A DNA stretch of 64,000 bases. Source: Yuukianura sp. NJ FZ-2021. Its lineage: Eukaryota. Below, one piece after another: positions 3,101 to 53,400 of this stretch. Location of the stretch: NCBI GenBank assembly GCA_046563655.1, contig CM102289.1:5952001-6016000 (forward strand), read 5' to 3'. Within the stretch, counting starts at the first letter, position 1; every line of letters starts with the position of its first letter. Position numbers and translations under genes: made by a program. The notes beneath the pieces were generated by a model. That model did no database searches. It was given only the letters and a program-made list of their open reading frames with translations, and was not told the DNA's origin.

Positions 3101-3136
3101 CCTTCCAGCTACCATCCCTACAGACGTAACATGTAG
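116..3136 (+). CDS. Hrb27C: hnRNP 27C / DAZAP1-like RNA-binding protein (2 RRMs + Gly/Tyr/Gln-rich low-complexity tail), 408 aa
   Basis: 8 GT-AG exons: 116-144, 221-428, 652-838, 1170-1252, 1379-1456, 1654-1882, 1989-2270, 3006-3136 (1227 nt, in frame). RRM1 [12 protein letters not shown]...[10 protein letters not shown]; linker [12 protein letters not shown]2 [16 protein letters not shown]...RGFGFVSF; C-terminal YHPYRR PY-NLS-type motif. Confidence 0.93.
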
Positions 3137-12723: not shown

Positions 12724-15700
12724 ATGAAGATTAGACTCATCAGTAATATTATAAAATGGAGAATCTGGACCCCCATTTCGTCCAATCCTGTTTTGATCGT
12801 GTTAATTTGGATACTAAGCTTTCCTTGCACTATAACTGGAGGTAAGTTTGTTTTAAAACTTAATAAATAAAGTATTATTTTTCTTAAATTAATTAAAGTA
12901 AATTCAATTAATTAGGAGAAATTGAATGAAGTCGTTTTGAAACCGATGTGAATGTGTTAAGTCAGGTATTTACAAAAACCACGAAGGTGGAAAATTGAAG
13001 ATGTTTTTGGTGAAAGTTGTTTTGAAATTTTGAAGTTTTGAAACTTTGAAATTTTTTGTTTTATCTGTTCGCAGAAGTGAAAATTTAGTACGACTCCAAA
13101 TGACACTACGTTTTTAATTAATTTCGATCTTTAGAAGGCTTCACTAAAGTCTCTCTTCCACTTTCACTTTGGTCCAAATAATTAAAAGGGTGAAAATTAT
13201 TGAGCTTTTTGTTCGTCCTAGTGCGGCAAAGAAGTTTAAAGGGCTTAGCGAGCTAAATTTCAAGTCAAGTTAAGAATTAACGGTCTATCTTGATTTGTGA
13301 TCTTGACTTTAATTGATTCCCTCCTAAAATTTGGACTTACTCTTGTCACCAATCTAAACGTTTCAAATTACGGGCCCCCGAAATTGTTTATTTTCATTTT
13401 AATTTAAACAGAAAAGACACAAATTTATCTCCGGCTGGCAAAAATTATCTTTCGAGGCTCTTAAACGGCTCAAATTCCACTCTCTTTGCGACGCCATTTT
13501 TGCAAAACTGAAAACATAAAATTTTGCGATACTAAAAAAGAAGACTTTTTGCCATTTTACACTCTACACAAAGTGTAGTAGTGGCCATTAACATAAGTGA
13601 TTTGTGGCACAAATCTGCATGGGAAAAAAATACAATGTGGCAGAAATTCGGAGTGCCTTTTTGCCACTGCTGTTTCATCTTACCCGGCAACCAGCAGACT
13701 ACACGACTCAAGGTTTTTTTTTTTTTCGTTTTTGCAAAAAAGAGAGAGAATGGCAAGGAAATGAGGCACTTTTGGCTCATACACTTCTTGTATGTCACCC
13801 CATGCGATTTTTTTTCTCTTTTTTGAAACTGCCGCCAGAATTTTGTGTAGCTTCCTCCATTGTCCTTTTCTTCTCTTCTTTAGACTTTGAACATGAAAAT
13901 CCGCCTCCACTCCCGTGTCTTTTCTTCTAATTTTAGAAGATCAAACTGTGCTATAGGGTTGGCAATGGGCCATCTTCTCCCGAAATCCATTCCATTGTTT
14001 TACATCTAATTCTTTACAAGGGAAATTCAACTGATATTCTTCCTCCTTCCTCTTTCAATTCTAACTTCTTTTAACAAGGAAATCTTTCTTCATTTACTTC
14101 CAAATCTCGGAAGTTTCAACGTGTAATGCTGATTTTTCAGGAGATTGTGCACAAACAATCAAAACAAAAAATTAAGTCAACAACCTTAGATAGATTTGTT
14201 TTAAATTGAAAACAGATTTCATATTTTCAAAAGAAAAATTCTTGTTTCCAAAAATGTGTTTTATTTCGCAAAATCATGAAAAAAAAGTTTTGAATTTTTC
14301 TAAACATTGCGCTTTACAAACATTGCAGAGCCGTCTGTATAGATCATCTTTAGGTTAAAAATTACCAAGTACGAGAAAAGCGTTGAAGAGTGAAAGGCGA
14401 AGCGTAGAAAAGATTTGCATTCACCTGTCAGCCACTTTTAAAGAAACGGAAGAAGCGGCGGGTAGTCCGCTAGTTCTTTTTTACTTTGCTAAAGTAACTT
14501 GGCTTCACTTCCAAATTTCCTATTAGTAGATTCAGGTTCCCAATTACTAAAAGAAGAGACCAATTTGTAAAAGTGGTCGGAATTTTAGTTAAGTGGAGTA
14601 TGTTGGATGCCAACTTATACACGAGTTTTAATAATACGTAGATGTGATGATTTGGCTCTGATTGTTTCTAGGTGGGAGTATTGTAGAAGACAATGATAGA
14701 GGTCACACAGTGCGAGCACCGTACATAGAACCTCCGCTTCAGGTCAACGTCACAGTAGCCCTTGGACAAACAGCATTCCTCAGATGTCCGGTCAAATTTC
14801 TCGGAGATAAAACTGTAAGCTATTACTATTTAACATTTACATTGTAGTCTAATTTTCATGAAAAATTTTTCCAAAGAGATAGTTTAGTCTATTTCGAAAA
14901 ACAACAATTGGATATTTCCCACAAACATTACAAATAGTTTTTTTTTAATTTCCAACAATAATACCATATTATATTTGACAAAGATATTGCAAACTGTTTA
15001 CTACACATGCGCATTACACCTTACTTTCCCGCTCTCTGTAAAATACGTTGAGCAAAATAACGCTTGGTTCTTGGATAAGGTAAGGCAGGGGCCGGACCAA
15101 AGTTGGGCACTCCCGGGCCGAAGTTCGGCATTGGTGGGCCATAGCCTGGAACTCCAGGGTATGGATATTGTCCAGACCATGGATCAAGTCCAGTCTGTTC
15201 GTTACAAGTTTCTCCCATAGATGGTTTGTAGCATCTCCATCCACAAGGTTTTTCGCCAAAGTCACAAAGAACTCCACCGTGGTAACACTGCTTCCCGAGG
15301 GACTTCGTGTAGCATTGGAATCCACAGACGTCTTCTAGGAAGTCGCACAGAATACCGCCAGGGTGACACTTCTTGGAAGAGTATTTGTCGTAGCACTGGA
15401 ATCCACAGACGTCTTCTGAGTGGTCGCATAGAATGCCACCAGGGTGACACTTCTTAAGAGAGTACTTGTCATAGCACTGGAAACCACAGGCCTTCTCACC
15501 AAATCCACAAATGACTTGCGACTGTACTAAATTTAAAAAATCATGGGTGATTCATTTTTAAGAAATCAATTTTTCAAATTACGGATTTACCGGGTTCCAA
15601 AAATGTCAACGTCAATCCGGTCAAAAGAAAAACGAAATAATTCTTCATTATGACTACGATTCTCAGCGTTCAACTATACTTTTGAAGAAATGGATTTGAA

Positions 15701-18700
15701 TTGAGATTTTATTGTCTACGAAACTCTTTCTAACTGAATTAGAGAAAACCACAAAGAGTAAACGGAAATCTGAACTAATTGCGCCAGTAATTAAAATACT
15801 TTCCAAAAAGATGGTTTACTCTATTTCTAAACAATCATTTGGCTGTTTCTCATGAACATTATGAAATGCGTCAATTTTTATTTCAAAAAACACAGCATTA
15901 TATTTGCTTTGTTATGTTTGTTAAAGTGTGGTCGTTGAAACCTTGTAGTGCGCATGAGCATGTACACCTTACTTTCCCATTCTCTGAAAAGTACGTGGGC
16001 CATAATTACTATTGGCCGGTGGATAAGGCATGGAAGTAGCCGGGCCAAAGTAGGGCGGTGGGCCAGGCATACCTGGACCATAAGCTGGAACTCCAGGATA
16101 TGGATAATGTCCAGGTCGTGGGCCGTACGGTCCAACCCCCGGACCAAGTCCTGTCGGTTCGTTACAAGTTTCTCCCATGGATGGTTTGTAGCATCTCCAT
16201 CCACATGGTTTCTCGTCAAAGTTACAAAGAACTCCACCCGGGTAACACTTATTTGCGAGGGACTTCATGTAACATTGGTATCCACAAACATCTTCTAAGT
16301 GGTCGCATAGGATGCCACCAGGGTGACACTTCTTGGAAGAGTACTTGTCATAGCACTGAAAACCACAAGCCTTCTCACCCGATCGACAAATGACTTGAGA
16401 CTGCACTAAATTTAAAAAATCACGAAATCACATTTCGACGACATTTCGATTAAAGAATCAATTTTTCAAATTACGGGTTTACCGGGTCCCAAAATGATGA
16501 ACGTCATTCCAAACAAAAGAAAAATGAAATTCCTCATCATGATTGTGACTGTGACTCTCTCAGTATTCAACTTCACCTTTGGAGAAATGGATTTGAATTG
16601 AGATTTTATTTGTACTACGAAACTCTCAATAAGTTAAAGTATCTCAAACTGAATTAGAGAAAACCACACATTTGACTTTTCAAACGGATATTTGAATTAA
16701 TTGAGTCAAGTCAATTTGTATGCGGTCACAACTTTTCGTAATATGGAAACTTTGAAGCTGGACACACGAGTTTGAAGACCAAAACTCTGAAAGTTGAGCG
16801 TTTTTGATTTATTACCATGAGTCGTACATGTGAGTACTACTACAATACATTACTTTCCGAAATTTCTGTATATCTTAGGTTAGGCTGTCTAATAAGTAGT
16901 ATTACTTGTAAGAAAAGTAACCTTGGGATTTCAACCCAACCTAGCAAATTTTAACCCTGAAGGTGAGTAGCAGGCACCGTTTGAATCGACATCTTCCATG
17001 AAATCACAGAGAATATTTCTTGGGCGGTTGCACTTTTTGGATTCAAATGCGCCGTAGCAAGTTTTCCCACAAACTTTTTGATTTGCGTCACACACAACGC
17101 CATCCGGGTGACATTTTTGGGAAAACGGGCTGTAGCATTCGTCACCGCAAGGTCTTTGCCCATACTCGCAAATGGGCTCCGATGCTAATACAGAATAAAA
17201 TGTTTTAAGTATTTCACTTTAAATTAAATTCAATACATACAGTATAGTAAAGATGATTCCGAAAGTATTTATTCAAGTACAGATCACCTTACCTTCTACA
17301 ATTCCGAAGAAACAGAGCAGCAGAATCAACCTCATCCTCATTCTGATAATAATTTGAAGTTGCGCCATGTTACACTTTGGAAGGCGTTCAGATGGGGATC
17401 ACAATTTATTTACTTTCGCCGCCAAATTATTTACTCATGAAACCACACGGAAGGAAATTTGAAATTTCAAAGAGAAAATCCCTAATTGCAAATTTAACAT
17501 GACTTAGCACGGAGATCAGCCCAATTTTTATTTTCTTTTGCTAAGTGGTAATCAACGAAGAATTTTTTTATACGAGAAACCTACCGACGGGGTACATAAC
17601 CGCAGGTCTTAATTAATCGCAACTTAATTGTTGTACCAGCTATAAACTGATTAAATATCACCGTCGGGTATCAAACTTCTTTGGCTATTTTTTTGCAACC
17701 GAAAACATACGCATGTCGTCGATTGTTTTTCTATACTCCCGTGAACAGCTGCTTCATATCCGGCTGTATCTGCTAAAAAAATGAATAAGTTGAAAATTCA
17801 ATATTTTTAATTTTTAAGCATTAAGCATATAATGTGATGCCGAAAATTTAGTTAGATATCAAGGTAGCGTACGTCTAACGTACGACCTTTAACATGTCCT
17901 AACAAAACATATATTAAGATGATGCCGAAATTTTTCTGAATTTTTACAAAAAAAAATTTCCACTCTAAAGTACGCTTGAAATTTCCGCCATTTTGACTTT
18001 ATCCAAATGTTACCTGAGTGTACGTAGAGCACTCATCATTTGAATCGACGTCTTCCATAAAATCACAAAGAATGTTTTTGGGGCGGTTGCACTTCTTAGA
18101 TTCGAATGCGCCGTAGCATGTTTTTCCACAAACTTTTTCGTTTACGTCACAAATAACATTACCCGGATGACATTTTTGGAAAAATGGGCTATGGCATTGG
18201 TCACCACATGGCCTTTGCCCGTACTCGCAAATGTGTTCGGAAGCCACTAACGAATCAAGTGTTTTAAATATAACAGTCAAAACATAATTTAAATTATAAT
18301 CTCTTCTGAAACACAGATTTCTATGCTTTTAGCAATCAACTTACCTTGTAAAATTCCTGTAAAGTATCCAACGAAGCAATACAATATTAGAATCCACTCC
18401 ATATTGAAAAGAAACTTTGCGATTGTGAGCTACGTTACGTTTTGCATTGACAGAAGACAAACACAATTTCGTCAAGTATCGCTTCAAATTATTTAAAACT
18501 TCAAACCACAAATGGGGGACGCTTGACATAAGTACAACTATAGCAAGCGTAATTACAAATTGCACGTTGCGTATAAAGGAAAGCAACGGAATTTATTTAG
18601 TCCGATTTGGCTTAGCTGCTAATTAACCCAGAATTTTTTAAAAAATATTTTATGCCGAGGTGACGTAAACCACAGGTCAGTTTTTAGTATAAGTTGACAT

Positions 18701-21700
18701 AGCTGAAACGAACGCAGCTTTGTTAGGCATTGAGTATAGGTGGGGAAAGGAAGTTGGCTGAACTTTCTAATGCCACTAGGAATGCATCGTGCGCTCTTCT
18801 CTCCCCAGGCAATCACTCCCCCCCCCCCTCCCTCCACTTTTGAATTAAACCGCTTCAGCCACAAGGTTTTAAGACGCTGAAGCTGTGTATTACTAGAAGC
18901 AAACGGCTGAGTTATGAACTTTCACTTAAGTTTTCATCAGGAACTTTTGGAGTAAGGAAAAGGCTCAGGGGCAGGAGGTTTCTAATTCCTATGATCTCAT
19001 TCTACCCCCCACCCCTACGCAACTTCCTCCCCACCCCCGTTTCTGACTTGCTTTTGACTCTTTTAGGGCTGAAGATTCTAATCCAATTGAAAGTTCCAAC
19101 TTTCTCCTGGAGAAAATTGTTTAGTGTCTGCCTATTAAGTTGAAATTAGGGGGTGGTAGTTGGGAAGGTGGAACATGGAGGGGTCAACGCCCCTACATAG
19201 TTTCTTAAACACACTCAAACATAGCCTTGACACTGGGTTTTCATATTGGATATGGTGGAATGAAGGGAGACTTTTAAATTTGGCAGGGTTCCATGAATTT
19301 TGAATTTCCGAGGGGCTGGTTGGATTTTGAACTTCGGCGGGGTTTCTCGGATTTTAAATTTTGGCGGGGTTTCTTGGATTTTGAATTTTGAGCGGGCTTT
19401 TTGTCTTTTGACAGGTGTCATGGATGCGTCGACGAGACTTGCATATTCTAACCTCCGGGAATCACATCTTCACTTCTGATCCCAGGGTCTCTCTCTTAAG
19501 GGATCGGGGGTCATGGACCCTTAAGATTCAAAATGTACAACGAAAAGACGACTCTCCCTACGAATGTCAAATCAACACAGAACCAAAGATGAGACTTGCC
19601 ATCTTCCTCACTATCATCGGTAAAGTTCTTATTTTAATGTAAAAAAGTAACTTTCTTTAAAAAAAACTTTCTCCAAAAAATTTCAAGAGAAAAAGTAAGA
19701 GTGGAATATTTAAAAAAAGCGACACCATCAAAACAAAAAAGCTTTTAAAACAACACGCTCAAATCCGTGAGAGTTCTCGCTTTTTCTGCTTTTTTTTTAT
19801 AAAAGTGAAAGCGAAAGTAGTAATGTTAACTTTAAACACTTTTGAGGAAGCGGGAGAAATTCAAAATTAGACAAACAAAACTTTTTCCTTTTCCTCACTT
19901 TTGAATTGACTCAATTTCTTCTAAACATTCTCTAAAAAGAAAATAGGATTAAACCTGGAGATGAAGCGAATGAGAACGTTTTTGTGAGAGAAAGAAGTTA
20001 AAAATCTCGCTTTTGAATTTTATTTTTTTTAAAAGTTGATGTAAAAAATCTGTTTTTACTTTTTGCTTTTTTCTAGGTTCTCAAAATGATGAGTACGTTG
20101 GGCCTCCATTAGAAGCCCAAGTAGATTACAGACTCCGTGGAAAGTCAGGTAAGAAAAATAGATACTCCTTTTCTTTTTTGTACAAAGTGAAATGAAGGAA
20201 GCAGCTTTTTAGTTCTTGTGAGAATACAGAGACAATAGAATTCAGTAGAAATATAATGCTTTCGTAACAAAGTTACTGAGAAAGTTGGTTTAATTCAAGG
20301 AGAAAGTAAGTGTCGAAGGGAAATGAATATGTAAATCTTAGCTTTCCTCTCACTGTCTTCAAATCTACAAAATCTACAAGAGTAGAAATGAAGACAGTTT
20401 TTGGAGAGAAAGAGAAAACGGAATTCAAACTTGGATTTTCAAATTTTCCCGGCACAAAAAGAGAGAAAGAGCTTTCACTCTCCTTCTGTACATGAAAACT
20501 TAATCTACTTAAACATGCCAGATTAACATCATTTTCATTCATGGCTCCAAAATTAGCAAGACTTCCATTTCTCTTTACAAAAGAGAGAAAATGCCCTCGT
20601 AAATTTAGTGTCCAATGTTTGAAAAATTTCATTATTCAAAAAAAATCTTCTTGAAAATTTTTGGAGGTGGAGAAGCCCGAGTGCTGGGTAAACCGAACAT
20701 GAAGGTCATCGCTGGCGGAACGCTCGAATTAACATGCGTAGCTGCTTACTCTGATTCGGGGCAAGTCGGAAGTGGAAGTGACCTCACGTGGTTTCGAGAT
20801 CAAACACCAATCAAACCACGGCTTTTTGGCGGCTTGGACATTCAAACTACCAGAGCGGGAACGACGATTATTTCAAAATTGAAGGTCAGCAGAATAGAAA
20901 TGTCGGATTCCGGGAAGTACTCGTGCGGTGGCACAGGGCTCCAATCAGAATCTTCCATTTTGGTGATGGTGATACAAGGTCATGGTCAAGGTCACGGAGG
21001 CCCATCTGGAGACTACGGTACGTTTGCCAAAATTTCCGTAATGTGATGAAGGGAGTAACTATTTAGCCAAACGTTCCCTTTCCAGCGCCAAGTTTTGGAT
21101 ATAATTGTGAATGCTAATTTGTGTTTCTGGTGGGGCAGGGTGTGTCGGTGGGACGAGCACCGTTTGGTGGGGCCATTTGTCATTTTTTAAATTGGGCTAA
21201 AGTGGTGTGAGGGAATTGGATAATTAGATTTTGTTCTAAAGTTTCTGGCAAGTCGTAATGGGTGACTGTGGCCATGTGCAGTTCTGGAGAGACTCCATTC
21301 TTCATAAGGAACGTTTTCCATTAAATAGGACATAACCTAACCATAGCCTAACCTAGTGCGTTGAAAGTTGAGCACGATGTTGCATGGTTGTCCACTACGA
21401 ACAGTGTAGTAAAAAGACTACTGGGAAATGAAGCTGTTAGAATTTAAATGTAGATGTAAAAGTTCCAGATGGAGATTATGGTCTTTTTCAGTTTTCCCGC
21501 CACAAAACATTTTCCCACACTTTCTCTTCTTAGTTTCACTTAATATGCATGGCACAGTTTCCCATGATTTTCTTTCCTTTTCTAAAAGCACATCCTACAA
21601 AATCGGATCCCTTTTTTGAGAACGAAAAAAAAATTACGGAATAAAATGAACTGAAATTTTCCCAGCTCAACTTTCTCTTCATGCGAAAATGTGTAACTTG

Positions 21701-26444: not shown

Positions 26445-29400
26445 TCATCTAAAGTAGTGAAATGTGAGCAGAGAAGTAGCAGTGAAAATGACAAGCGGAG
26501 ATGAAACTGTGGAAGCAATTCCATGTTCTCCATGCTGCATTGCGGCGGGATGCTCACCTGTTCAAAAAAAAATTCAATCTTTTAAAATTTTGAAAATTCT
26601 GAGATTTTAAAACAAACTTTTCAAAAAGCGGCTCAAGGTCAGCGAGAAAGAGTGTTTTCTCTACTTTAAAAAAAAACTTTCGCCTTTGCAAAAGTCAAGA
26701 TTTCCCATCGGTCATTAAAAAAAAGTTTTGTACCATGTTTACTTCACGCGCACGCGACAAAAAACTGCGCTTACTTTTTTGAGCCCCCAAAGACTGAAAA
26801 CTTTTGCAAATCCCTTCAAGACTTTTTTCTTCGGAGCTTTGTGCGAAACTTGAAAGACTAAAAGAGGAAAAGTGAAAGAGGGGAAAGACTTTGGCTAACG
26901 CCATATTTTTCAGTCCGTTACGCAGGAGCCTTATTAAAGAAAATCTTTCAGAAACTCCGGAGGAATTTTGGTTGTTACAAAAGCTGAAAAATCCTTTTCA
27001 AAAGTTTCTGCCACAACTTCAATTTGCATTTGAAGTCAATCGAAATTGGCGCGTAAAAAGTTTAAGTTAAAAAAATCTTGTTATGCTTTTGTTTGGAGAG
27101 GGAAGATAAGAAGGAGGACTTCCCCGAAAAAGAAAGGGAATTGACAGTATTGGCAACTTCAGAGTTTTGCAAAAAGAAAAGGATTTTTGGCGCACTTTTC
27201 AAAATAATGACTTCAAAAACCTCTTCTGGTTTTCTGAGAATAAGGAAAGTGGAACAAAACCAAAAGTTAGTTTCAAAAAGAAACTTTTTAAAGAGCTTAT
27301 AGGATTTTGAAGTCTACGAGGCTCTTGTTTATGCCTTGTTTACTTCTCTAATTTCTTTGTTCAACTTTCTCCAGGTGTTTCCCCTCTTTGCAAAATAAGT
27401 ACTGGCTTTAGTTTTTTGAAAAACAAAAGTTTTTTGAACCAGAAACTTTATTCAAGAAATATTTAGAATTTCGGAGTTAAGATTTGTTGAAGCAAGAAAA
27501 AATCACTTGAAACAAAGTAGTAAGCAAAACAAGAAACAACTTCTTGTGAATGCTGTGTTGTACAGATAAGCCATCAAAATTTACTTAACCGCTAAGACTC
27601 TAATAAATTTTTTTTAAATAAATAGTTTTTTTTTGTGATTTTGTGATTGATATAAGTTAAAAATTTCTTACCGTTGAGAACATGAACCCAAACGGATGCT
27701 TGATGGGCGTTGGATGGGACACAAGTATAGTTTCCGGAATCTGCGAGCGTTGCCTTGGTAACCAGCAGCTTACTGGTTGTTGCGGTATCCGTTTTTTCTG
27801 TTTCCAAGGAGATACCACCACGTGGGGAATCAAAATCGACTATGGCGTTTCCATGGTACCACGCCACGGACCCGGGTGGTTGTGACTGAATGTTGACTGA
27901 ACAAGTGAGGCTGATGGTGGAGCCCGTTTTGACGTATACGTCATCCGGCCCCCAAATTTTCGCTTGAGCTTCTAGAACAATCGCAGGCAGTTTTAGACTC
28001 GTGCAAACATATAGGCGTTTAGTTTTTAGACTTCTTGCAGTTTAGCTTAGCTAAGAAGTCAATAACCTCTCACAAGTGCAGCGTCAACAAAGAAAAAAAG
28101 GCGGCAAACAAAAACTTTAATACAATTCTTTTCACGAACTGCACTTCCGCATTTGTTCAAATACAAAACACAGTTCCCGCTTTTTCTCTTTCTTTTCTAT
28201 TGGAATCTTCCATTCCCTAAAATTTCAGAAGACAGCTTCCAGGAAGATAAAAATGTCAGCCCTGTCCTGTTTATTTCTCATTTTGAAAGGAAAGCTGATT
28301 AAGGAGAAAATTTAGATGTGAAAGCCCATGAGAAAACTTCTGAGCTGGCAGGCGGGGTGCTAGATACGCAACGGCGCCTGCAGGACGACGTTAACTTAGG
28401 TTATGTTAGAGTAGTGAGTAGCCAACTAGCACTCAGTTGCAGAAGTCATAAATTCCCGCCTTCTAATTAATCCCCTCTCTGCACAAATATTTATTTATTG
28501 CCGTACTTTCTCCAGTTGCCACCGAAGAGCTTTGATTGGTGAAAGCATCTTCTGCACTGCATTTCTCCAGGAAATGATGATCACCATCATCATCATCAAG
28601 AAGATGATGATGAGGGTTGGAGTTCATAACGCAAGGTTGTTTTGGAGAGCCCGCACTTTTCAAATTTCCCTCATGGCCACCATCACCTCATCCTGGTTTG
28701 GGGCAATGTGAGAAACTTTTCAAGTTTCCACCAGCGATGAGGTGGGGGGAAACTATGAATAATGATAAGTCATTAAGGGCCTTCTGGATTTTATTATTTC
28801 CCCAACACCATAAACACTTCTGTCTGGCTCAAGGCACACTACATCATTCACTCCAACCTAAAGGACATACGCCGCGGATGCCCAATTAAATCCAGAACCA
28901 AATTTATCACCATGGACCTGCGCCCGTCGCTGGAACGAGCGAAATCGCTGCTGGATTTTGGCGGGAGCTCCAAAGTCACTTTTTCAAAATTTGGCTCTTC
29001 GCGCCAACCATTGTCCCAAGAGCACCGTTACCCGTTGCCGTGCTTATGATGCAGAAATATGCTAAGGGTTTCCGGCCTTTCCGAAATTTTGGAGCGACGA
29101 AAAGTAACGGTTTTGGTTAGCTGCACAAACTCACCTTCTTTTCCAAAAGGTAAGAACGGCTCTTGGAGCCATAAAATCTCTCTTCCAGAAATGTTAACAT
29201 TTCCGCCAAGTTCCGCTAGGAGTGAAAAGCGCGGGCTCTTTTGAATTTGTTTTGAAATAGTTTCTGTAGCTCTTATTTCAATATTCCTGTCCTTCCTGCC
29301 GTCTCTGACCTTCTCTAGTCCACAATGGAAATCCAATTATGGACCAGGAGACCCACACATCTCCCAAAAGGCTCCCTCCAAAACCACAATCACACTAAAT

Positions 29401-41400: not shown

Positions 41401-44400
41401 TTTCTCTCCCTTGTGCATTCATTATTAGAAACTTAAATTAAAAAAGACCAAGGAACAAGTGAAATTAGACTTTTGGGATTTTTTAGTAGTTTGAACGACT
41501 TGGTGATTTATTCAATTTTACGAAAACTTTCACTAAAAAGCTTTTTAACCCATTTCATGTGTCTGCCTGTCCGTTTTGTTTTTGGAAATTACGAAGCTTA
41601 AATGTAAGAAATTTGAAATTACTTAATGATTTAGCAATATATAGAATTAAAATTGTTCAAACCATTTCGAGATTTTGCAAATTTAACTTTTTGTTTCCTA
41701 TGTTTTTAATAGAAACAATAGAAATGGGTTACGGTGTAGAAAACACCTTCGCTACTTCGGTATAACTCTTCTTTGTGTATGCCTTCGACGTGGCCTTGAG
41801 CCCATGCACTCTTCTCCTCTCTAATTAAATATTCTTCTGACATTTTTCCAAAGAAAAAGTTAAGTTAAACTTTACACAAAAAATTTACTTTTTTAAGGAA
41901 AGTAAATCCAAAACTTTTTTCTTCCTAATTTTTTTTTCTTTGGCATAAATGTATGAATTTTGGTGCCGCCTGGAGGTGAATTTTGATAGGAAAAGGACGT
42001 CCCCTTTTCCTTCTGATTTTTAGTTCACTTCTAATTGGAATCAACAAAATGCCTCAAAGTCTGAGTCTCCAAAAGAAGTAAGAAAAAAGTTTTTGAATTT
42101 TCCCTGGTTCCAAATAAGACTTTCCCTTCCTTAAGAGAAGACGTAGCTGGGAAAAAGAGATTTCCTTCAGATTTCCCTTGAGTCCTTTACGACGAGAGAT
42201 GACATCCTCCCAAAAATCTTACCAATCCACAAAATCCAACTGTAGTACGTTTGTCATAAGGAAATCAATGGGAGGCACAGGAAGAAGAAGAAAACAGACT
42301 AAGAAGACTCAATATCTTATTCCTAATTCAAATTTTGGAACGACAGAGATGATTCTCTCTCTTGTGATTTTTTTCTGATCACCACCGAAATCGAGATTTC
42401 GCGCGAAAACTGAAGAAAGAAGCCACTTTTTCAAATAATTCAAATGATAGTTGGGCTTGTAGAGTAATTGTAAATGGGTAGAGCCTTCTTAAGGTTTGCT
42501 TTACGAACTTTGCCAAAATTTTACTTCAGACTGGTTCCAAATCAGATACCTGGCGGGAGAGAGTAGAAAGTTTGAAAACGGGCACCATTACTCCTGTGTT
42601 CAAAAACTACCTTTGGCACTCTGAACTAAAGAAACTGTAGAGAAAGAGGAGAGAGTAAGTAGGAATTCACTGGAGAAAGTGCTGTGCTCCTGCCTTTAAT
42701 TAATGATTCCAATGGACCAATTTCCCACGTTTTCTTTGCACAAATAGTTCTTTACCTGCTTTCTCTTTTTAAACGTGAGAAACTGTACAAAAAAGCGAAA
42801 AGTTTCAAGTTTCATTGCCATCCAGTTTCTGTATTTTGTACTTTTACTCAAGACGAAAATAAACTCAAAATCCTTCAGAATCCAATCAAGCTCTCTCCAC
42901 TCTAAACAAACTTTTAATCCAAGTTTCTTAAGTACAACTTTTCAAGTTTGAAAATAAAAGTACATAAGGCTTTACCTGGGATTGAAATCATGGCGTTCAA
43001 AGCTCACGCAGGTTTTTCACGATAAAATTTTTGAGATCAAAGGCTCGCATTGCTGGTTTGAGCTCCACTTTCACTTTCATTGACTCTATAATTAGGTTTT
43101 GAGTGTAGCTGAAGTATTGTGACCTAATTATTAAGATATACTTCATGTTCCAGAAGTATATTGGAAGCGACATGGGATTTAGGTTTTGTTCAGTATATTA
43201 GCTTAGGCTATGTGATGCTTTCTCTGCATGAGTTAGGTTTCGGGTTTAGTTTCTAATTTACGGTGGTTTTTAGTCGTGGTGAACCAAAGCGTGTAACAAG
43301 CATTCCTTATTTGGAATTAGAATGTAATTAAATTTTGTGGCGGGAGAAAAGGCAGATTTAAAGTTTCTAATAAAACTTTGTACTTTCTCTTCTCCTTTGC
43401 TACAGTCAATATTCTATTACAAGTTTCCAAAAATTCATTGTTATTTAACTTTTCAAAATTTGAAGTTTTGGAAACTCATAAGAGCCTAAAACTTAACTTT
43501 CTCTGTTCGCTTTTGAACTTAATGAATTGCGGTATTGGAGTTTGAGGTATTCGCGGTACTACAAGAGAACAACCATACGAGAAAGTAAATAGCAAATATC
43601 ACTAAAGTAGAGAAGTGGTTTCGATAGGACTTATTTTGAATTTGAATGTTTCGTAGTATTATATTGGAGCGGGCTCTTGGTGGGATATTTTAAATTTCCT
43701 GCGGTTTGACATTTGGGAATAATTTTGGGTTTCATATTGAACTTCCTTAAGGGAGTCTCGACCTACTTCCCACAACATTAATTTCTCCATAAATATCTTG
43801 GATAGGAGTCACCAAAATCCTGGAAGGAGCAAATACTTATAGGACTGTGAGAATCTCTGAATTGGGACTTGGAGTACATATCCTAGAGTTTAGAATCTAG
43901 AATTCAAAAGAGCACTATATTTTGTAGGAGGAGGAAAACGGAACAATCAAGTCAGATCCTAAATCCTTTCAACTTCATAAATTAGGAAATTATGCCGGGA
44001 TTTACAAATTCAAAAGTACAAGCCATTGGATTTGAATTGCTAACTTATAGGCATCGTTTACGAGAAAACGCACGGAGCAAATCCAAATTATTTACAGGCA
44101 GGAAAATTTCTGCAACTTAACTTCTAAAGTAATCGTTTCATTCAGAGTCACGGGAAAACATTTCTTTAACTCTGATACGTACTGTGTTTAAAAAAAAACG
44201 CTTTTAATTAATAATTAACCACTTATTAATTATTAGTCAAGGTTTGTATTTTAACAAGTTGGTTTTCCGGGAAGAATTTTTTTCTCACAGAGTTTATAAA
44301 ACGAGCAGGAGAATAATTTCATAAAAGTAATTTAAAATTACTTAACATTTTAAAAGCGAACTTTAAAAAAAAACTTGTATTGAGCTTTGTGCAAAAAAAA

Positions 44401-47400
44401 ATTCATTAAGGTTTTAGTTATGAGAATTTTAATCAAAACTCGTGTCTTTCTCACGATAGTGACGGCTGTAATGGCCGTGGATGCTGCTATTTCGCAGAAA
44501 CAAGTAAAAAAAATTTTTTTTAATTGATAAAAAAATAAATTTTGAAAATAAATGTTGTTAGCTTTACTAAATTCTAATTTGTAAGGACACACTGAGATTC
44601 CGTGGACGTTTACAACAATACCCGTATGAGATTCTCGAGAAAATTACATATCCGGTCCCAAGTTCAATCGTATCCATTCGGATAAACAGAATGGAGTTGG
44701 TTCCGTTGAAATTTGTCCAAGAAATAGAAAAATTTGGGCAAGTTCAAGAAATTGAGCTCGTCGATGTCGTCTGGCGTGGAAATTTTTCTGAAAAATTAAC
44801 ATTTCCGAAGTTGACCCGGATTGAAATTTCCAGGAAAAATTGGATGTTTGCGGAAAGTTCTCCAGAAGATTTTTGGGACATGTTATTTTTTACTACATCA
44901 GAAAAGGCGTCGTCTATGAACAACCTTAAAATATCTATTTTTGCTGAGCTTGGAGGTCAATTTTTATATGACGAAGGGGTGTTGGAAATGTACGAAATTC
45001 CGTATGACCTTCAACGATACTTTCCTTATACGGAGCTTATAGCTTATGACACGGTCATTGATCTGTCAACATTCAAAGGATTAGGGGTGCACGAATTCGG
45101 TGCAATGGACTCTAGCCTAATCCATGGGACGTCAGATTACTTACTACAAAAACTTGAAGATATTGTTCGGTAAGTAAACAGAATCGTAGGTATATTTTTT
45201 TTTAGAGATAGCGCACAAAATAATTATTTACTCCATGGTTTTATTATTACTGTAAGTTCGATTAATTGAGTGCAACATTTTGGCAGGTTGGATTTACGGT
45301 TTCTGACCTTTGACACGGAAACTTTATCGTACAAATTGAGTTCACTCCATAGTCATTCGCTGGAGCACCTTACTCTAATGGGTGCCCATCGTGTATACAC
45401 TGCTTTGACAATAACTCAAAGTGTTGTACAATTTCCAAAATTGGTTAGTCTATTTATTACCAGTGCAACATTGCCTACATTTGGAATCAAATCAGGAACA
45501 AATTTAACCCGCATTGGGTTTTACAACATTTCGTCAACGCGCGCAGAAAATTTTGAGTTCATGAGATCATTGCCCTTGCTCACGCGCGTAATGATCACTG
45601 GAATTCATGGGTCAGCAACTGGCTACGTGAACTTTGACCTGTCTTTGCTTCGACAGTCCAGTAATACCCTTCAAAAATTAAGTCTAGGCATTGCCAAAGT
45701 CACGCTCACCTCTTGGGATTTGACGTTTTCAAACATGAAGGAACTAGAATTGCTAGAAAATTGCAAACTGGATGGCGGAGTCAAGACGTCCTTTTCAAAT
45801 ATATTTAACACGACAAACGAAATGTATTTGGAATATCAACTTACAGACGACCTTTTGAATTCAGTACGCAATACGTCCGTGTCCACGATCTGGATCTTTG
45901 GAGTTGACCGAATTCCTACTAAATACGTTGGAGTGCAGAAATTTCTGGAACAAGCAAATGTGAAACCTGGCGCAGTTGGGGTACAATTAAAGAAAGTTAA
46001 CGACTCCTGGCAATCTATGAGAAATATTTTCGGAGAAAAAAAGAAATACGACCAAGAAGAAACTTGGTTCAATGTATACTTTTTCGGTCTTTTGGTCCTT
46101 TGCTTTTTTGGAATCTTTGGAAATGTTACGTCAATTGCTGTGTTATCAAGAAAGGCTATGATGAGTTCTACAAGTTGCATTATGATTGCCCTTGCACTGT
46201 GTGATCTTGGAATTCTCGTGTCACTTGCTGCATCTATTCCCTTGTATGGATTTAAATTGGTCACACTGTTTCCCACAATTCTGGCACTTCCGCATGAAGC
46301 GTTGGATTCATTTGCATTATTCCCACTTTTGGGAGAAAAGCCAACGGAAGTCATGCTTTCACTTGAACATTTTCAATCTAGCTACATTTATCCATTTTCG
46401 AAAACAGGTAAAGACAAAAAAATTCAATACAAATTCCGTAACATATAACGAAAATTACAAAGTGTAAATTACAGCAAATCAAGTTGATAATTTTGGCTGT
46501 TACTTTTTGGTAGCATACAGTGCGTCAATATACGTCACAATTCTGTTGACGCTTGAAAGATTTGCAGCGGTATGCTTCCCTCTCAACGTGAAGTCTTGGT
46601 CAAGCAAAAAGAAAGCAATCAGAATCTGCGTCTTGATTTTCTTTGGAGCTATTGTGATTAACTGCCCACGATGGTTGGAAAACATTGGGTCAAAGGTCAG
46701 ACTCATATTCCTAAGAACAAAGAAAGAGCTCAAAGGTGTAATCTCGAGGGACTACGACAGTGGAAACATTCTACGCAACAAATTCTACAGAGAATATTAC
46801 CATGGATACGGCTGGACAGTTCTGATGTACCTCATTCCAATTCCACTTCTTACAATTTTGAACATTACAATACTAGTTCAGGTTAGTTGACATGGGACGT
46901 TTTGAAAAATCAAAAAAATCTTGAGTTCTATGCCTTTCTTTACATTTCTTTAGGCAATAAGGTCATCAAAAACACGTGGAACAATGACCAGGTCAACCCA
47001 GGACAATGACATTGCGGCTCTTACTATGATGCTTCTCTGTGTCAGTATCTGCTTCATCTTTAGTAACACGCTGAATGGTGCCATTATTTGGTATTTTGTG
47101 TCTTTTGGAACCTATGACCCCAGAGACGTTGAAGTCTTCTCTTCTATCCCACTCATGTTCAACTCATCAACAAATTTTGTTTTTTATAGCTTGTTAGGCA
47201 AAAAATTTAGAAAGCATTTGGGTATCATGTTGCAAAAATTGCGGTGTTGGAGATGCTAATCTACTCAAAAAACTTTCGGTTAGATTTAAAAAAATTTCTA
47301 AGCTACTAAAACTAAAGCTTAGCAAGTAGAAAAAAAAGTGTGTTAATTAGAATGCGCGGTATTTGTGTTGATGAATTTAAAACTCACTCCGTTAATTACC

Positions 47401-50400
47401 ATTCGACGCGCAGCGTAAGATTTTTTAAAATGTGGTTTTCCTGGAAATTAGAGTGCTAATTTGCAGGTTATATATAACTAGAGGCAAATATCCAGTCAAG
47501 GCGATTTCAACAAAATTCATGTAATAACGATTTGCTAGTTCTAAAAACCTACCTTGTTTTAAATATTTAAAAAAGCTACTTTTTAAAAAAAAACGAGTTA
47601 TTTTTGTTTAAATTTAGTTATGATTTCTGTTATAAAAATTCGTTTCTTATTCGACATTTTGTCGATTGTCATTCTCATTGGAACAGTGGCAAATGGTCTT
47701 AAGCAACAAATGGTAATGGATTTTAAAATTTTCAGTAATTTTTGAATATAAATTGCATGTATTGTAATTAGTATCCAGAAGAAATGAGAATCCGTGGAGA
47801 ACTGCAGCAATACCCTTACGAACTCCTGGAGAAGATTGAACACAGCAATCCAGAGTCAATCAAGTTCCTTGGAATACACAAAGTGGAAATTGTTCCGTCA
47901 CAATTCACAGAGGAATTGGAGAAATTTGAAAACCTTGAAGAAATTGAACTTGTGGATGTGATTTGGAAGGGAAATTTCTCCAAAAAGTTAACTTTTGCGA
48001 ATTTGAGCAGAGTAGAAATTTCCAGGAAAAATTGGTCATTTTCCAATAGTTCCGCAATTGAATTCTGGGACATGTTGTTTTTCACTTCGCCTGAAGAATC
48101 TATGACCCAAGTTACAATCTTAATTTTCGCTGAACTTGGAGGGCAATTTTTCTACGACGAAGAGCATTTGGAAGTTTCTGAAATTCCTTATGACCTTCAA
48201 CCATACTTTCCTCATAAGGCGGTAAGCGCTTATGACACGGTCATTGACCTATCGAAATTTAACGGATCAGGAGTACTGGATTTTGCGGCGATGGATTCTA
48301 GCGTTGTTCATGGGACCTCGGATGATCTGCTAAGAAACCTTGCATATATTGTTCGGTGAGTAAACATTGTTTTATTAAAATTGCTAATATTATTTAGTTA
48401 TATGTAATTTAGAATGTGTTTTTTAAGTTTGGAATTACGTTTCTTGACCTTCGACGACAAAATTTTATCATACAACCTTGCCTCTCTCCATGTTCAGTCG
48501 CTTGAATCTCTCGTCCTAGTTGGCGGGCGTCGCGTATATGCTTCACTAATACCGACTCGTAATTTAATACATTTTCCAAAGTTGACTACCTTTATGGTTA
48601 CAACTACGGTACTCTCAACGTATGGATTAAAATTTTCTGATACAACGTTAACGACTATTTGGTTGTATAACATCACCTTGGTGAGCAAAACTGATCTGGA
48701 CTTTATACGGTATTTGACCTCGCTCAAATCAGTTGGTGTCACAGGATCTGAAGCGTCAACAACTACTTACGTGGACTTTGACCTATCACTGCTTCAAATG
48801 TCCCGCAAAACTGTCTCTACATTATTTCTTCAAATGAGCAAAATCACAGTCACAACTTCTGATTGGGAGTTTTCCAATATACGGTCACTGGAAGTGGTAA
48901 ATTGCATTTTAGACAGCGCCACCATGAGCTCATTTTCGAACATTTTCTATCAAACAGAAAAAATGGGTTTCGAATATCAACTAACTGATGAGCTTTTGGA
49001 TTCAGTACTAAATACTTCCGTATCGACAATTTGGATTCATTCAGTCAATAAAATTTCTACGGAAAATGTGAGAGTGAAAATTTTTTTGACTCAAGCAAAT
49101 GTTGAACCTGGTGCAAGCAGGGTAGAGCTGAAGAAGGTCAATGAGTCATGGACAGCAGTGCAAAATATATTTGAAGAGAAAACAAACATTGATCGTGAAG
49201 AAGCTTGGCTCAATTTCTACGTTTTCGGTCTTATGATTCTTAGTGTTTTTGGAATTTTTGGAAATGTCATGTCAATTGCTGTGTTGTCTAGAAAGACAAT
49301 GATGAGTTCTACAAGCCGTATTATGATTGCTCTTGCCCTTTGTGACCTTGGAATACTCGTGTCACTTGCTGCATCAATTCCTCTGTTCGGATTTAAACTG
49401 GTCACGTTATTCCCCGAAATTCTGGAAGTTCCTTATGATACATTGGATTCAGTTAAATTATTTTCAATTTGGGAAGGACATCCGATTGGTCTCGTTCTTT
49501 CTCTTGAACGATTTCAATCCAGCTACATTTATCCAATATCGAAAACAGGTAAAACAAAAAAAAACATATAAAATGTTTAATTTTTATACTCAACCGCATT
49601 TGTCGTTGGTGTTTCTGTAGCATACAGTGCATCAATATACATTACGATTCTACTGACGATTGAAAGATTTGCAGCAGTATGCTTTCCTCTCAAAGTGAGG
49701 TTCTGGACAAGCAAGAAAAAAGCAACTACAATGTGCATCTTGATTTTCCTTGGAGCTATTCTAATCAACTCTCCAAGGTGGCTAGAAAACATTGGGTCAA
49801 ATGTCAGAATTATTTTCTTGAGGACAAAGAAAGTATACAAAGGAGTCATCTTAAGGGACTACGATGGACCAAATATTCTACAGCACAAATTCTACAGAGA
49901 GTATTACCATGGATATGGCTGGACGACACTGATGTACCTCATCCCAATTCCACTTCTTACAATACTTAATATTACGATACTGGTACAGGTGAGTGAAGCA
50001 GCTAGAAACATTTTCTTTGTAATGTTTGAATATGCTAAACTTAAGTTTTCTATAATTACCTAGGCAAAGAGGTCAGCGAACACGCGAGGAGCAATGACAA
50101 GGTCAGCGAGCACGCGAGGGGCAATGACCAGGTCAGCGAGCACGCGAGAAACAATGACAAGGTCAACACAGGACAGTGACATGGCTGCTCTGACTACGAT
50201 GCTTCTATGCGTCAGTATGTGCTTCATCTTTAGCAACGCTGTCAATGGTGCCATACTTTGGTATTTTGTGTCTTTTGGAACGTATGACCCCAGAGACATT
50301 GAAGTCTTCTCGTGTATCCCACTCATGTTCAACTGCTCGACAAACTTCGTTTTCTACTTCTTGTTAGGCAAAAAATTTCGAAACGAATTGGGTATCATGT

Positions 50401-53400
50401 TACAAAAATGTAGGTGCTGGGCACACTGATTCAAAATTCAAAGTTTAGGAATTGAAAAAGTAGAAATACAAATTCAAAGGATACACAAAATGACGGGACG
50501 TCCTTCAAACTCACCATTTACACATACAAAAACAAAAACAAATACTAGTACAATTAAGATATTTTTCGCAATTTTCAAAAATTTTATTAAATATTCTATT
50601 TGTTTTTATAAACAGGATAAATTATTCACAATTCCTGCTGGAAATCACTATATGCACTTATGTGATTACGATTAAAGTCAGTCGAGTGAATTGAATTGAA
50701 ATAAAAGCTCTCGTCATTCCTATTTTGAATCATCATCCTGCTCCTTTCTCTCGCAGCACCCATCGCTTCATGCGGGCATTCGAAAAAAGAACAATGACAT
50801 TTTTTTGATTTTGAAAAAAAATTACGTGAACAACAATAGGGGTGACATTGTGTGATGGGAAGGGTAAGTCTGAGTCGCGTGACAATGTGACATGTCAACT
50901 TTCTCTCCCCATGGGATTCCGTTCACCAAAAGCCTTTCTTCTCATTTTTATACGGCAAAGGGCAGACGTTAGGTTAGCATTAGGGTGGTTAGGTTTAAGC
51001 GTTTCGGTTTTAGGTTTTAGTTGAAATTGATCGCTTCCCTTTCCCTTGACAATTCTAGGATTACTTATCCCTCATATCCCCATCCACATCAAGTGATGGA
51101 AAAAGAACATTGTTATTGTTATGATTATTTCCTACTTCCTTTGTCTCCAATAAGTTCAATTTCAAATGAAAAACTGAATTAATGTTTCCTATAAAGCTTC
51201 ACTGATTCCAGGAAATGTTTTCCCGATGGACTTTTCCCTGATTATTTGCGCAACAACTGGAAGGATTACTGTAAGGGCGTTTGGATATGTGCAACAACTG
51301 GAAATGATTTTCAAATCTGCGCTGCAACTGTGTACAAAAATTGTGTTTGCGCAAAAGCTTAAAACTAATTTTTAGGATTAGATCTTAAGCCTAATATATA
51401 AAAAAAAAACAAAGAGACAAGTCACACGTTTAATAAAACAGACAAAAAGAAAGTCGAAATGTTGCAGTTTCTTTGCAATTTTTCTTTGCAGGCAAAACGT
51501 TGTGTAATTTTTTACAGTTTTACATTTTCCCAAGTTCGTTTTTTTTTCTCCAAACTGCTAGACGCAAATGGATGTCTTTGAGGTTTTTGAACTTGGCGAA
51601 TCAAATTGGTTTGACCGTTTAGAATTGATTTTATTTGAGCACGACACAAAAGTGGCGAAGAGAGAAAGAAAGTTGTGTGGGAATTTGAAACGTTCAAGAA
51701 TTGGAGCTAGAAGTCCTCCGTACGTGGTCCAGACCTTAGGACGTGAGAGAAATGAGGCTGGAAGCCTGTGCTGAAACGTTGTTCATGGCTACTATTGGAA
51801 ATGGAAGATTTCCAAAGTCCCCCTGGGGAATCTTTAGAGTTGATTTATTTCTGTCCCCTTTGAACTCCCTTTTTCCTTCTTCCCAAACTACATACACTCA
51901 ATCTCAGGTTGTGCAGGGAGAGCCCTTAAGGACTTTCCTTACTTACCTTGTCTCGAACATTTTCGGATTTCCGGGTTCCTACTTCAAATCAAACAGATTC
52001 CTCTAAAAAACCCGCCTTTTGATATAAGAAAACACCAAATCCAACCATTTTTAACTTTCACTCAATGCTGATCCTTGGGTTCGTTGAACCCCTCCTAAAC
52101 TGTCCTCTACTCCCCCCCCCACTTGACTTTGTTGTTTGTGACCCCCCCCCCCTTGAGAGACTTAGTGGGGGGAGGGGTTCTGTGGGTGGGAGGCAGGAAG
52201 TGAAGCAGAAAGAGGTCATGAAGACACTTTGGGCTTGACTGCTTTCTCTAATTTCCAATTGTTAAGAACAAAGTTGTAAACATCTTTGATCTGAAATCGT
52301 TAGGGAGCAGAAGACACGCAAATGAACATCTTCAACCAAGCATTCAATGGATTCAAATGTCCCAGGAATTTCAAGAAGATTTCATGTTTGCGGCTTAAGT
52401 TTAATTCTTTTTGTGGACCAAGGGTTCTGTCATGTCAAATTCAAAAGAGGAGCCCTTTGTGACACCAGATTCCTTGGAAGGGACGCACTTTTAGTGAGGT
52501 GGTTTGTTTAGGCTAAAATGAGAAAGTGAATTGTCCCTTGGCGTTCTGCTTTGTTCAAGAAAGAAAGTTTAGCTAGTGCAGATATTATGTGGAAGTTCCT
52601 TTGAACAAGGAGTTCCCTTTGTACTTGTACAGAAAGTAGAAAGTGAAAGTGGAAATGTTGGTTTTTGATGGTTGAGTGGACATGGGAAATGTTCGCTTTT
52701 GAAACTTTGAAATTTCCCGCCCGCCCGCTCGCGCACCGCACGGTAAAGCTAGTGGCAGTGGGAAAACCTAAATGGATCAAATGGACGCAACCCAAGAGGA
52801 ATTCAACTGGATAATAAAATACATATTGGCACGTTTCCGCTTTCAAATTCCAGAGCACAAAGGGCAGAACTCTTTGGGGCAAGGAGAGAATTTCAAAAGT
52901 CGTGTGGTCAGCGTATGATGTCCGGTTCTTGTTTACACACTCAAATATTTGTTGTTTGGGCGTATGAAAAAAATAAACAATAAACAAAAGTTTAAAGAGA
53001 CTGTTGAACAGGAGGAAAAAAAATGTGCGGGAAATGGAAAATGTTGTAAATTAATTAGAGCTTTTTATAGTTGAAACGACTAGGAGGAAGAGAGACATAA
53101 ACGGTGACTTGAGTAGGAGTTATGACCGCCATTTTCAAAAAGAAAGGAAAAACAACTTTGAGTTTTCCTGGAAAGAGAAAAATTCGTACTGGGATCTACG
53201 GACTTTCTTCAGGAAGAGGAAAGTCTGCTCATTTAATCTAAATAATCTAACCGAGCTTTCAATGATTTTGTTCTGTTCGAAAGATAAAACTTTTTCTTTG
53301 TTGAAAAAAAGTAAAAGTAAAAAGTAAAACCTTAAAGCTTATTTTCTTCGTTCCTTGTTGTTAACTTTGTCTTCGTCAAGTTCCTTATGGAGGCTTAGAG

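Follow-up and report, generated by a model that had tools for sequence, protein, structure and literature searches.

In this study, we analyzed a stretch of 64,000 nucleotides of animal DNA (positions 5,952,001 to 6,016,000 of contig CM102289.1, GenBank assembly GCA_046563655.1, Yuukianura sp. NJ FZ-2021), in the following called the window. At 44420-50429, its plus strand carries two head-to-tail genes for G protein-coupled receptors (GPCRs), both intact and with five exons each according to sequence-based modelling. We consider it likely that they represent a previously unannotated family of animal GPCRs, in which a signal peptide, a solenoid of leucine-rich repeats (LRRs), a helix plus hairpin and a class A seven-transmembrane (7TM) domain follow each other, a design like that of the LRR-containing GPCRs (LGRs) and probably assembled independently of them.

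Gene models and exon structure

All introns of the two genes are of the GT-AG type with lengths of 59-117 nt, and the reading frames are continuous (Table 1). Gene 1 (44420-47259, +) encodes 820 amino acids (aa) with the acceptor of exon 4 at 46514 and 833 aa with an upstream acceptor at 46475, and gene 2 (47620-50429, +) encodes 843 aa. The two proteins share 528 identical residues in 859 alignment columns (61%); the genes are tandem duplicates, both intact, and a third copy was not found within the window by tblastn with both proteins. These models agree with an original prediction, made from the sequence alone, which had described two intact paralogs at this locus with a signal peptide and about 480 aa before the first transmembrane segment (TM1). 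The N-terminus from exon 1 is short, basic and then hydrophobic in both genes and is predicted to be a signal peptide, and TM1 sets in near residue 483-487 in both proteins. The ectodomain bears six (gene 1) or eight (gene 2) N-x-S/T sequons and only one Cys per copy, at position 382 and 385, respectively, and therefore has no Cys-rich caps. Owing to the 30-bp repeat in exon 5 of gene 2, a 10-aa unit (RSASTRGAMT-like) is present three times in its third intracellular loop (ICL3); gene 1 has one copy of this unit in the protein alignment.

Exon 4 of gene 1 has two in-frame acceptor AGs 39 nt apart. Use of the upstream one (AG at 46473-46474, acceptor 46475) would insert 13 residues, one of them a Cys, ahead of AYSASIY at the start of TM3. 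This longer TM3 start was rejected and the acceptor at 46514 is preferred, because gene 2 has no matching AG between its donor and 49619-49620 and because gene 2 and the homologues all open the exon at AY(S/T)(A/G)S(I/V)Y. Also, the structure model ends gene 1 exon 3 in a 20-residue stretch of helix, which would run on into TM3, and one contig each of runs X1 and X4 (see below) aligns on both sides of 46413-46504, not over it, which is a weak hint at 80% likeness.

Table 1. Exons and repeat of the two tandem receptor genes. Srw, Srx and 7tm_1 are Pfam families; AF2, AlphaFold2; ECL, extracellular loop; TRF, Tandem Repeats Finder.
Feature	Position	Strand	Content and evidence
Gene 1 exon 1	44420-44503	+	ATG and putative signal peptide, 28 aa, with hydrophobic segment; GT donor; joined to exon 2 in phase 0
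Gene 1 exon 2	44586-45169	+	Predicted N-terminal half of LRR ectodomain; aligns with residues 6-210 of relative P0002, E 4e-10
Gene 1 exon 3	45287-46407	+	Predicted C-terminal LRR half, capping helix, β-hairpin, TM1, TM2, long ECL1, TM3 start; AF2, VIA-align, Srw
Gene 1 exon 4	46514 (alternative acceptor 46475)-46881	+	TM3 (ERF), TM4, ECL2, TM5; Srx and 7tm_1 matches
Gene 1 exon 5	46954-47259	+	ICL3, TM6, TM7 (NSSTNFVFY), tail, stop; Srw 21.5 bits, profile positions 222-312
Gene 2 exon 1	47620-47712	+	Start codon and putative signal peptide, 31 aa
Gene 2 exon 2	47772-48355	+	Predicted N-terminal half of LRR ectodomain; 62% identity to gene 1 exon 2, dN/dS 0.20
Gene 2 exon 3	48428-49548	+	Predicted C-terminal LRR half, hairpin, TM1, TM2, TM3 start; Srw 26.1 bits
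Gene 2 exon 4	49621-49988	+	TM3-TM5; Srx and 7tm_1 matches; sole AG after donor 49549 is 49619-49620
Gene 2 exon 5	50064-50429	+	ICL3 with in-frame repeat, TM6-TM7, stop; Srw 19.1 bits
Tandem repeat in gene 2 exon 5	50070-50165	+	30 bp, 3.2 copies, 89% matches, TRF score 157

Structure of the ectodomain

Domain and fold tests were run per exon or on uninterrupted open reading frames (ORFs) of homologues, i.e. on unspliced translations. For exon 3 of gene 1, the AF2 model from a 22-row alignment reached a mean predicted local distance difference test score (pLDDT) of 79.8, with values >90 over residues ~70-250. In it, short strands take turns with helices, and a capping helix (214-222), a β-hairpin (229-248), TM1 (251-286) and TM2 (294-327) come after them. 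VIA-align against 48,161 PDB representative chains listed 50 rows for model residues 1-249 (Z 11.8-14.6; 150-226 residues aligned). LRR proteins make up 46 of these, among them Roco LRR, FBXL2, internalins, VLR, SDS22, TLR4 and LGR4/5. The other four are chains of large assemblies without protein title.

The full ectodomain was modelled for the relative P0002 (581 aa; 24-row alignment including the window exons), with which gene 1 is collinear, exon 2 aligning as given in Table 1 and exon 3 with residues 349-567 (E 5e-23). This model (mean pLDDT 83.2) has ~19 successive strands over residues 5-400; behind these come a helix (411-422), a hairpin (431-446) and TM1 (454-487). All 50 VIA-align rows listed were of LRR type, with Z of 10.5-16.5 and up to 379 residues aligned, spanning residues 1-450. 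Foldseek gave 99 matches at E ≤ 1e-3, and those listed were LRR proteins, led by internalin A, TLR2/6/8, LRRC8 and LGR4/5.

Since repeat proteins easily reach middling Z values in VIA-align, evidence at the sequence level was sought as well. The LRR-like motifs quoted in the original prediction (LEHLTLMG, LVSLFITS, LTRIGFYN, LTRVMITG, LQKLSLGI, MKELELLENC, LEEIEL, LSRVEI) are all present. The family profile A5 matched solved LRR proteins over profile positions 150-385, namely FBXL2 (5.9e-7), the phytosulfokine receptor PSKR1 (6.2e-7), MIK2 (2e-6), a designed LRR protein (3.7e-6) and ANP32A. Of the 24 family members, 6 matched Pfam LRR_At5g56370, an F-box-associated LRR family, with a best E of 8.3e-7. 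The conserved columns are mostly an L/F/N skeleton plus an F-D-L-S-x-L-x-x-S motif. The fold matches bear out the predicted LRR-like character, and the family profiles point the same way: according to the models, a single LRR solenoid with about 17-19 repeats makes up the whole ectodomain (~450 aa), and judged by the profile matches its LRR type is nearer to F-box-like than to typical extracellular LRRs. ESM Atlas matches of the ectodomain all scored <0.9; F-box/FNIP-type LRR clusters at 0.81-0.84 are a lead only. For the 7TM domain of the relative P0046, the most frequent Atlas taxa were Chordata and Rotifera (scores 0.91-0.93), likewise no more than a lead.

Classification of the 7TM domain

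The Pfam family 7TM_GPCR_Srw (PF10324; gathering threshold 22.2 bits) matched the TM1 pieces in exon 3 above threshold, with 27.5 bits in gene 1 and 26.1 bits in gene 2, and was found in 18 of 24 family ORFs (E ≤ 0.1). One family member, P0046, matched 7tm_1 with E 6.6e-11. P0060 (412 aa), which is the closest full-length relative that lacks the ectodomain, already bears annotations for Srw, Srx, Srv and 7tm_1. For GPS, GAIN and 7tm_2, Pfam gave no match at E ≤ 1 on the exon products and none at E ≤ 0.1 on the 24 family ORFs.

Profiles of the individual parts were compared with PDB sequences. Among the best 60 of 501 matches of the TM3-5 profile, neurotensin receptor 1 was closest (3e-7), and GPR139, V1a, SSTR2, NMUR2, NPFF2, TRHR and the motilin receptor came next. 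For TM6-7 (best 60 of 209), the delta-opioid receptor was closest (5.7e-8), followed by NMUR1, SSTR1, orexin and galanin receptors, and for the ectodomain plus TM1-2 (best 60 of 178) the TRH receptor was closest in the TM1 region (3.5e-9). The predicted 7TM motifs YIYP, ERFAAVCFPL, NCPRWLE and NSSTNFVFY were all recovered; ERF stands for the E/DRY-type motif, and NFVFY within NSSTNFVFY for the NPxxY-type motif. The TM7 motif NSSxNFxxY presumably resembles that of FMRFamide, myosuppressin and sex-peptide receptors. From these matches, the 7TM domain is classified as class A (rhodopsin) of the Srw/peptide-receptor type.

According to published work, nematode FMRFamide receptors and insect myosuppressin receptors are relatives of Srw (PMC2576165), the peptide and SOG groups come nearest to it among the rhodopsin subfamilies (PMC3963977), and Srw-like genes have been reported in planarians (PMC4862687). 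Our profile results agree with this published kinship. Placement of the 7TM domain in the FMRFamide/myosuppressin/sex-peptide receptor group is plausible on the basis of the Pfam Srw matches and this kinship.

Conservation of the fusion in relatives

That the ectodomain and TM1-2 lie in one exon in both copies had been put forward as an argument that the fusion is no splicing guess. In each copy, exon 3 indeed holds ~260 aa of ectodomain, TM1, TM2 and the first turns of TM3 in a single open frame, and the same arrangement occurs in relatives. A HMMER search with exon 3 against 1.84 billion representative proteins gave 44 matches at E ≤ 1e-3, 11 of which (P0001-P0010, P0031; 28-41% identity) run from the ectodomain into TM1-2. 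These 11 look like prokaryote-style ORF calls on eukaryotic contigs, and those of them that reach the end of exon 3 share the Y-P-x-x-K-T-G boundary at which they stop. In P0002, P0008, P0009 and P0031, the parts that correspond to window exons 2 and 3 form one unbroken ORF into TM1-2. A family profile search added P0045-P0048, of which P0045 and P0046 also have the single-exon fusion; in P0046 a short intron is read through, so that the ectodomain and TM1-TM5 stand in one ORF. Profiles A1 and A4 returned 5 and 14 proteins, none with a name or an informative cluster name, and in a further homologue search with exon 3 not one of 6079 candidates scored.

A metagenome scan yielded eight confirmed loci (L001-L008) out of 103 pattern matches, with 24-40% identity. 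At L001, the three downstream parts match the window genes in both their order and the breaks between exons, and at L002-L004 and L006-L008 an exon opening with AY(T/S)GSVY...ER(F/Y)xAVCxP lies just past the ectodomain exon. Contigs from a second organism (run X4) cover both genes at ~87-94% identity (for example, 123 differing letters of 944 and 110 of 1696). The fusion is not a splicing artefact, since its layout recurs in ~20 ORF fragments and in the eight metagenome loci, and we hold with good confidence that the architecture of LRR ectodomain plus 7TM domain is real, intact and conserved.

Two further observations concern these samples. Run X1 gave 219 contigs on window positions 44300-50500, distributed over likeness classes from ≥99% down to <90% as 67/59/50/43, which suggests several haplotypes, paralogues or related animals in the sample. 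Downstream of the receptor gene at L001, the closest homologue, a 608-aa ORF (2102-3928, -) has many C2H2-type zinc-finger-like motifs, so that the neighborhood of this locus differs from that in the window.

Divergence of the copies and alternative explanations

Between gene 1 and gene 2, the ratio of nonsynonymous to synonymous substitutions (dN/dS, Nei-Gojobori) is 0.20 in the exon 2 part, 0.26 in the ectodomain part of exon 3 and 0.19 in the 7TM domain. With values of 0.19-0.26, ectodomain and 7TM domain of both copies are under purifying selection. Identity is 62% (exon 2) and 52% (exon 3 part) in the ectodomain and 78% in the 7TM domain.

This lower conservation of the ectodomain bears on the question whether the genes encode fast-evolving chemoreceptors comparable to nematode SRW, which would detect peptides and proteins of environmental or microbial origin, instead of receptors for endogenous hormones. 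The Srw-type 7TM domain, the tandem duplication and the many divergent paralogue-like ORFs in one metagenome (the eight loci) fit such a role, and SRW proteins have been proposed as sensors of environmental peptides (PMC2576165). However, with an ectodomain dN/dS of ~0.2 there is no sign of positive selection at this resolution, and a single organism as the source of the metagenome ORFs is an assumption. We regard the chemoreceptor role as a serious possibility, if on balance an unlikely one. The sensor of protein or microbial ligands suggested in the original prediction is speculative.

A second explanation starts from the overall architecture, which is the same in LGRs: the genes could be diverged members of LGR types A, B or C that inherited LRR and 7TM parts together and whose 7TM domain drifted. 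Whole-receptor structures of TSHR, LHCGR and LGR4 are among the Foldseek rows, and FSHR, among the best 60 of 209 matches of the TM6-7 profile, weakly matches TM7 (E 0.011). This value is, however, about five orders of magnitude weaker than that of the delta-opioid receptor for TM6-7, and no LGR, glycoprotein-hormone or relaxin receptor occurs in the best 60 of 501 matches for TM3-5 or the best 60 of 178 for the ectodomain plus TM1-2. Pfam gives Srw, Srx and 7tm_1, the single Cys of the ectodomain leaves no Cys-rich caps and no hinge, and the LRR profile matches F-box and plant-type LRRs, not LGR ectodomains. Descent from LGRs is therefore very improbable. The earlier statement that the 7TM domain is unlike that of known LGRs is in line with the Srw assignment and the best-ranked profile matches; by similarity ranking, the view that it is not LGR-type is supported, and an origin of the whole receptor independent of LGRs is somewhat favored.

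That the genes are recent pseudogenes, or that the upstream exons are a separate secreted LRR gene, can hardly be true: exon 1 and the junctions 1-2 and 2-3 are predicted from sequence alone, but each copy has ~2.5 kb of coding sequence without frame disruption and purifying selection on all parts, the junction between ectodomain and 7TM domain lies within one exon, and a single ORF spans the counterparts of exons 2 and 3 and runs into TM1-2 in P0002, P0008, P0009 and P0031.

Several observations weigh against the proposed receptor family. Regarding the ectodomain, Foldseek with the gene 1 exon 3 model reached a best E of only 1.8e-3, with rows that were almost all LRR proteins, and the fold of the N-terminal half of the window genes is taken from the model of P0002, which is 22% identical. 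No window ectodomain piece met a Pfam LRR threshold (best LRR_14, E 0.035, 13.3 bits against a cut-off of 40), and exon 2 of gene 1 had no Pfam match. In the HMMER check suggested with the original prediction, Srw on the TM1 pieces lay above threshold and LRR on the window pieces below it, with LRR recovered in family members. Block-wise conservation of the ectodomain is even, and no binding face or transduction module stands out; the C-terminal cap plus hairpin, tried as an extra-conserved transduction module, was rejected for this reason.

Regarding the 7TM domain, Srw on the TM6-7 pieces of exon 5 scored 21.5 and 19.1 bits, just under the cut-off, and the TM3-5 piece matched Srx (32.8 bits) and 7tm_1 (28.2 bits at a cut-off of 30.5; fragment) in preference to Srw. 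With the R of ERF set to 3.50 in our own numbering, position 3.25 is Ser; Cys3.25 of TM3 and the conserved Cys of ECL2, and hence the cysteines of the TM3-ECL2 disulfide, are absent. The expected lack of the TM3 Cys was thereby confirmed, but YIYP, which had been placed before TM3, lies inside its N-terminal part. TM6 also lacks the usual CWxP proline, and G-protein coupling is not assured, because this proline and the disulfide cysteines are missing. Finally, both the signal peptides in exon 1 and the acceptor chosen for gene 1 exon 4 are predictions.

Proposed mechanism

The ligand, most likely a protein or peptide, would be bound primarily by the LRR solenoid; our confidence in any one class of ligand is low. 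Occupancy of the solenoid may be passed to the 7TM domain via a rigid junction of helix/hairpin and TM1 together with the ~25-residue long ECL1, and the helical bundle would then signal through G proteins. We infer this last step because the E-R-F version of DRY and the N-F-x-x-Y version of NPxxY are kept. The working principle would thus be LGR-like, yet its parts, a 7TM domain of another lineage and LRRs of another kind, would have been assembled independently. A tentative and rather improbable extension is that the genes represent a second, independent invention of the LRR-GPCR, combining a cap-less F-box-like LRR with an Srw/peptide-receptor 7TM domain in a so far unannotated invertebrate lineage, and that it expanded into a multigene family sensing external macromolecules (microbial, prey or conspecific proteins) as the GPCR counterpart of Toll-like receptors.

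Other features of the window

Pfam was run on 150 of the 178 ORFs of at least 75 aa in the window. An RRM_1 exon (652-927, +; E 1.6e-9) lies at the window start, and exons of a furin-like proprotein convertase (6561-8929, -) comprise three Peptidase_S8 pieces and a P-domain piece. Two neighboring ORFs of 176 and 152 aa (15024-15551 and 15972-16427, -) have Cys-rich repeats (CGFQCYDKYS.KKCHPGGILCD-like) and a Pro/Gly/Tyr-rich tail; neither has a Pfam match. Exons with immunoglobulin (Ig) domains (V-set, I-set, ig, Ig_3) at 19412-21043 (+) and 27595-28041 (-) suggest one or more genes of the Ig superfamily. Searches of the window gave no Rfam match and no tRNA gene.

Comparison with known systems

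LRR-GPCRs, which are regarded as one ancient lineage, are known from textbooks as the receptors of glycoprotein hormones, R-spondins and relaxins. Like the window genes, these LGRs (glycoprotein-hormone receptors, LGR4-6, RXFP1/2) have a large N-terminal LRR solenoid before a class A 7TM domain, and by analogy the mode of action is likely similar, a macromolecular ligand being caught by the LRRs and the signal passed to the 7TM domain. They differ in that the window 7TM domain is closest to peptide/SOG receptors and Pfam Srw, that the window genes have no Cys-rich LRRNT/LRRCT caps or hinge but a helix plus β-hairpin that abuts TM1, and that their LRR type is nearer to F-box-like LRRs. If this holds true, a second LRR-GPCR lineage on a peptide-receptor/Srw 7TM domain and with another LRR type would clearly exemplify convergence in domain architecture. 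By comparison with LGRs, one could then test how a class A 7TM domain can be gated by an LRR ectodomain without hinge or TM3-ECL2 disulfide.

With the Srw or FMRFamide/myosuppressin-receptor-like GPCRs of protostomes, the window genes share Pfam Srw on TM1 and TM6-7, ERF/Y-x-AVC-x-P after TM3, NSSxNFxxY in TM7 and tandem, lineage-specific duplication. Known members are described with short N-termini, in contrast to the ~480 aa before TM1 found here. No LRR ectodomain on an Srw/FMRFamide-type 7TM domain was found in the literature covered, which included passages of PMC2396169, PMC4862687 and PMC7308585, their supplements lying outside this scope, and PMC3963977 has no occurrence of LRR, leucine or N-terminal. 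In this literature, the architecture was not already described. In the protein collections searched, the family is represented by nothing but ORF fragments without a name; standard surveys of GPCRs in annotated proteomes would have missed it. If confirmed, it would draw attention to receptors of small invertebrates that have so far gone unannotated and that may have proteins, not small peptides, as ligands.

ADGRA2/A3 (GPR124/GPR125) likewise have LRRs outside a 7TM receptor, but they belong to class B2 with Ig, HormR and GAIN/GPS domains, whereas the window genes are rhodopsin-class and have none of these by Pfam. Toll-like receptors and plant LRR receptor kinases, which are among the structural matches, likewise use a long extracellular LRR solenoid as sensor; their anchor is single-pass and their output is TIR or kinase, whereas the window genes have a 7TM output.

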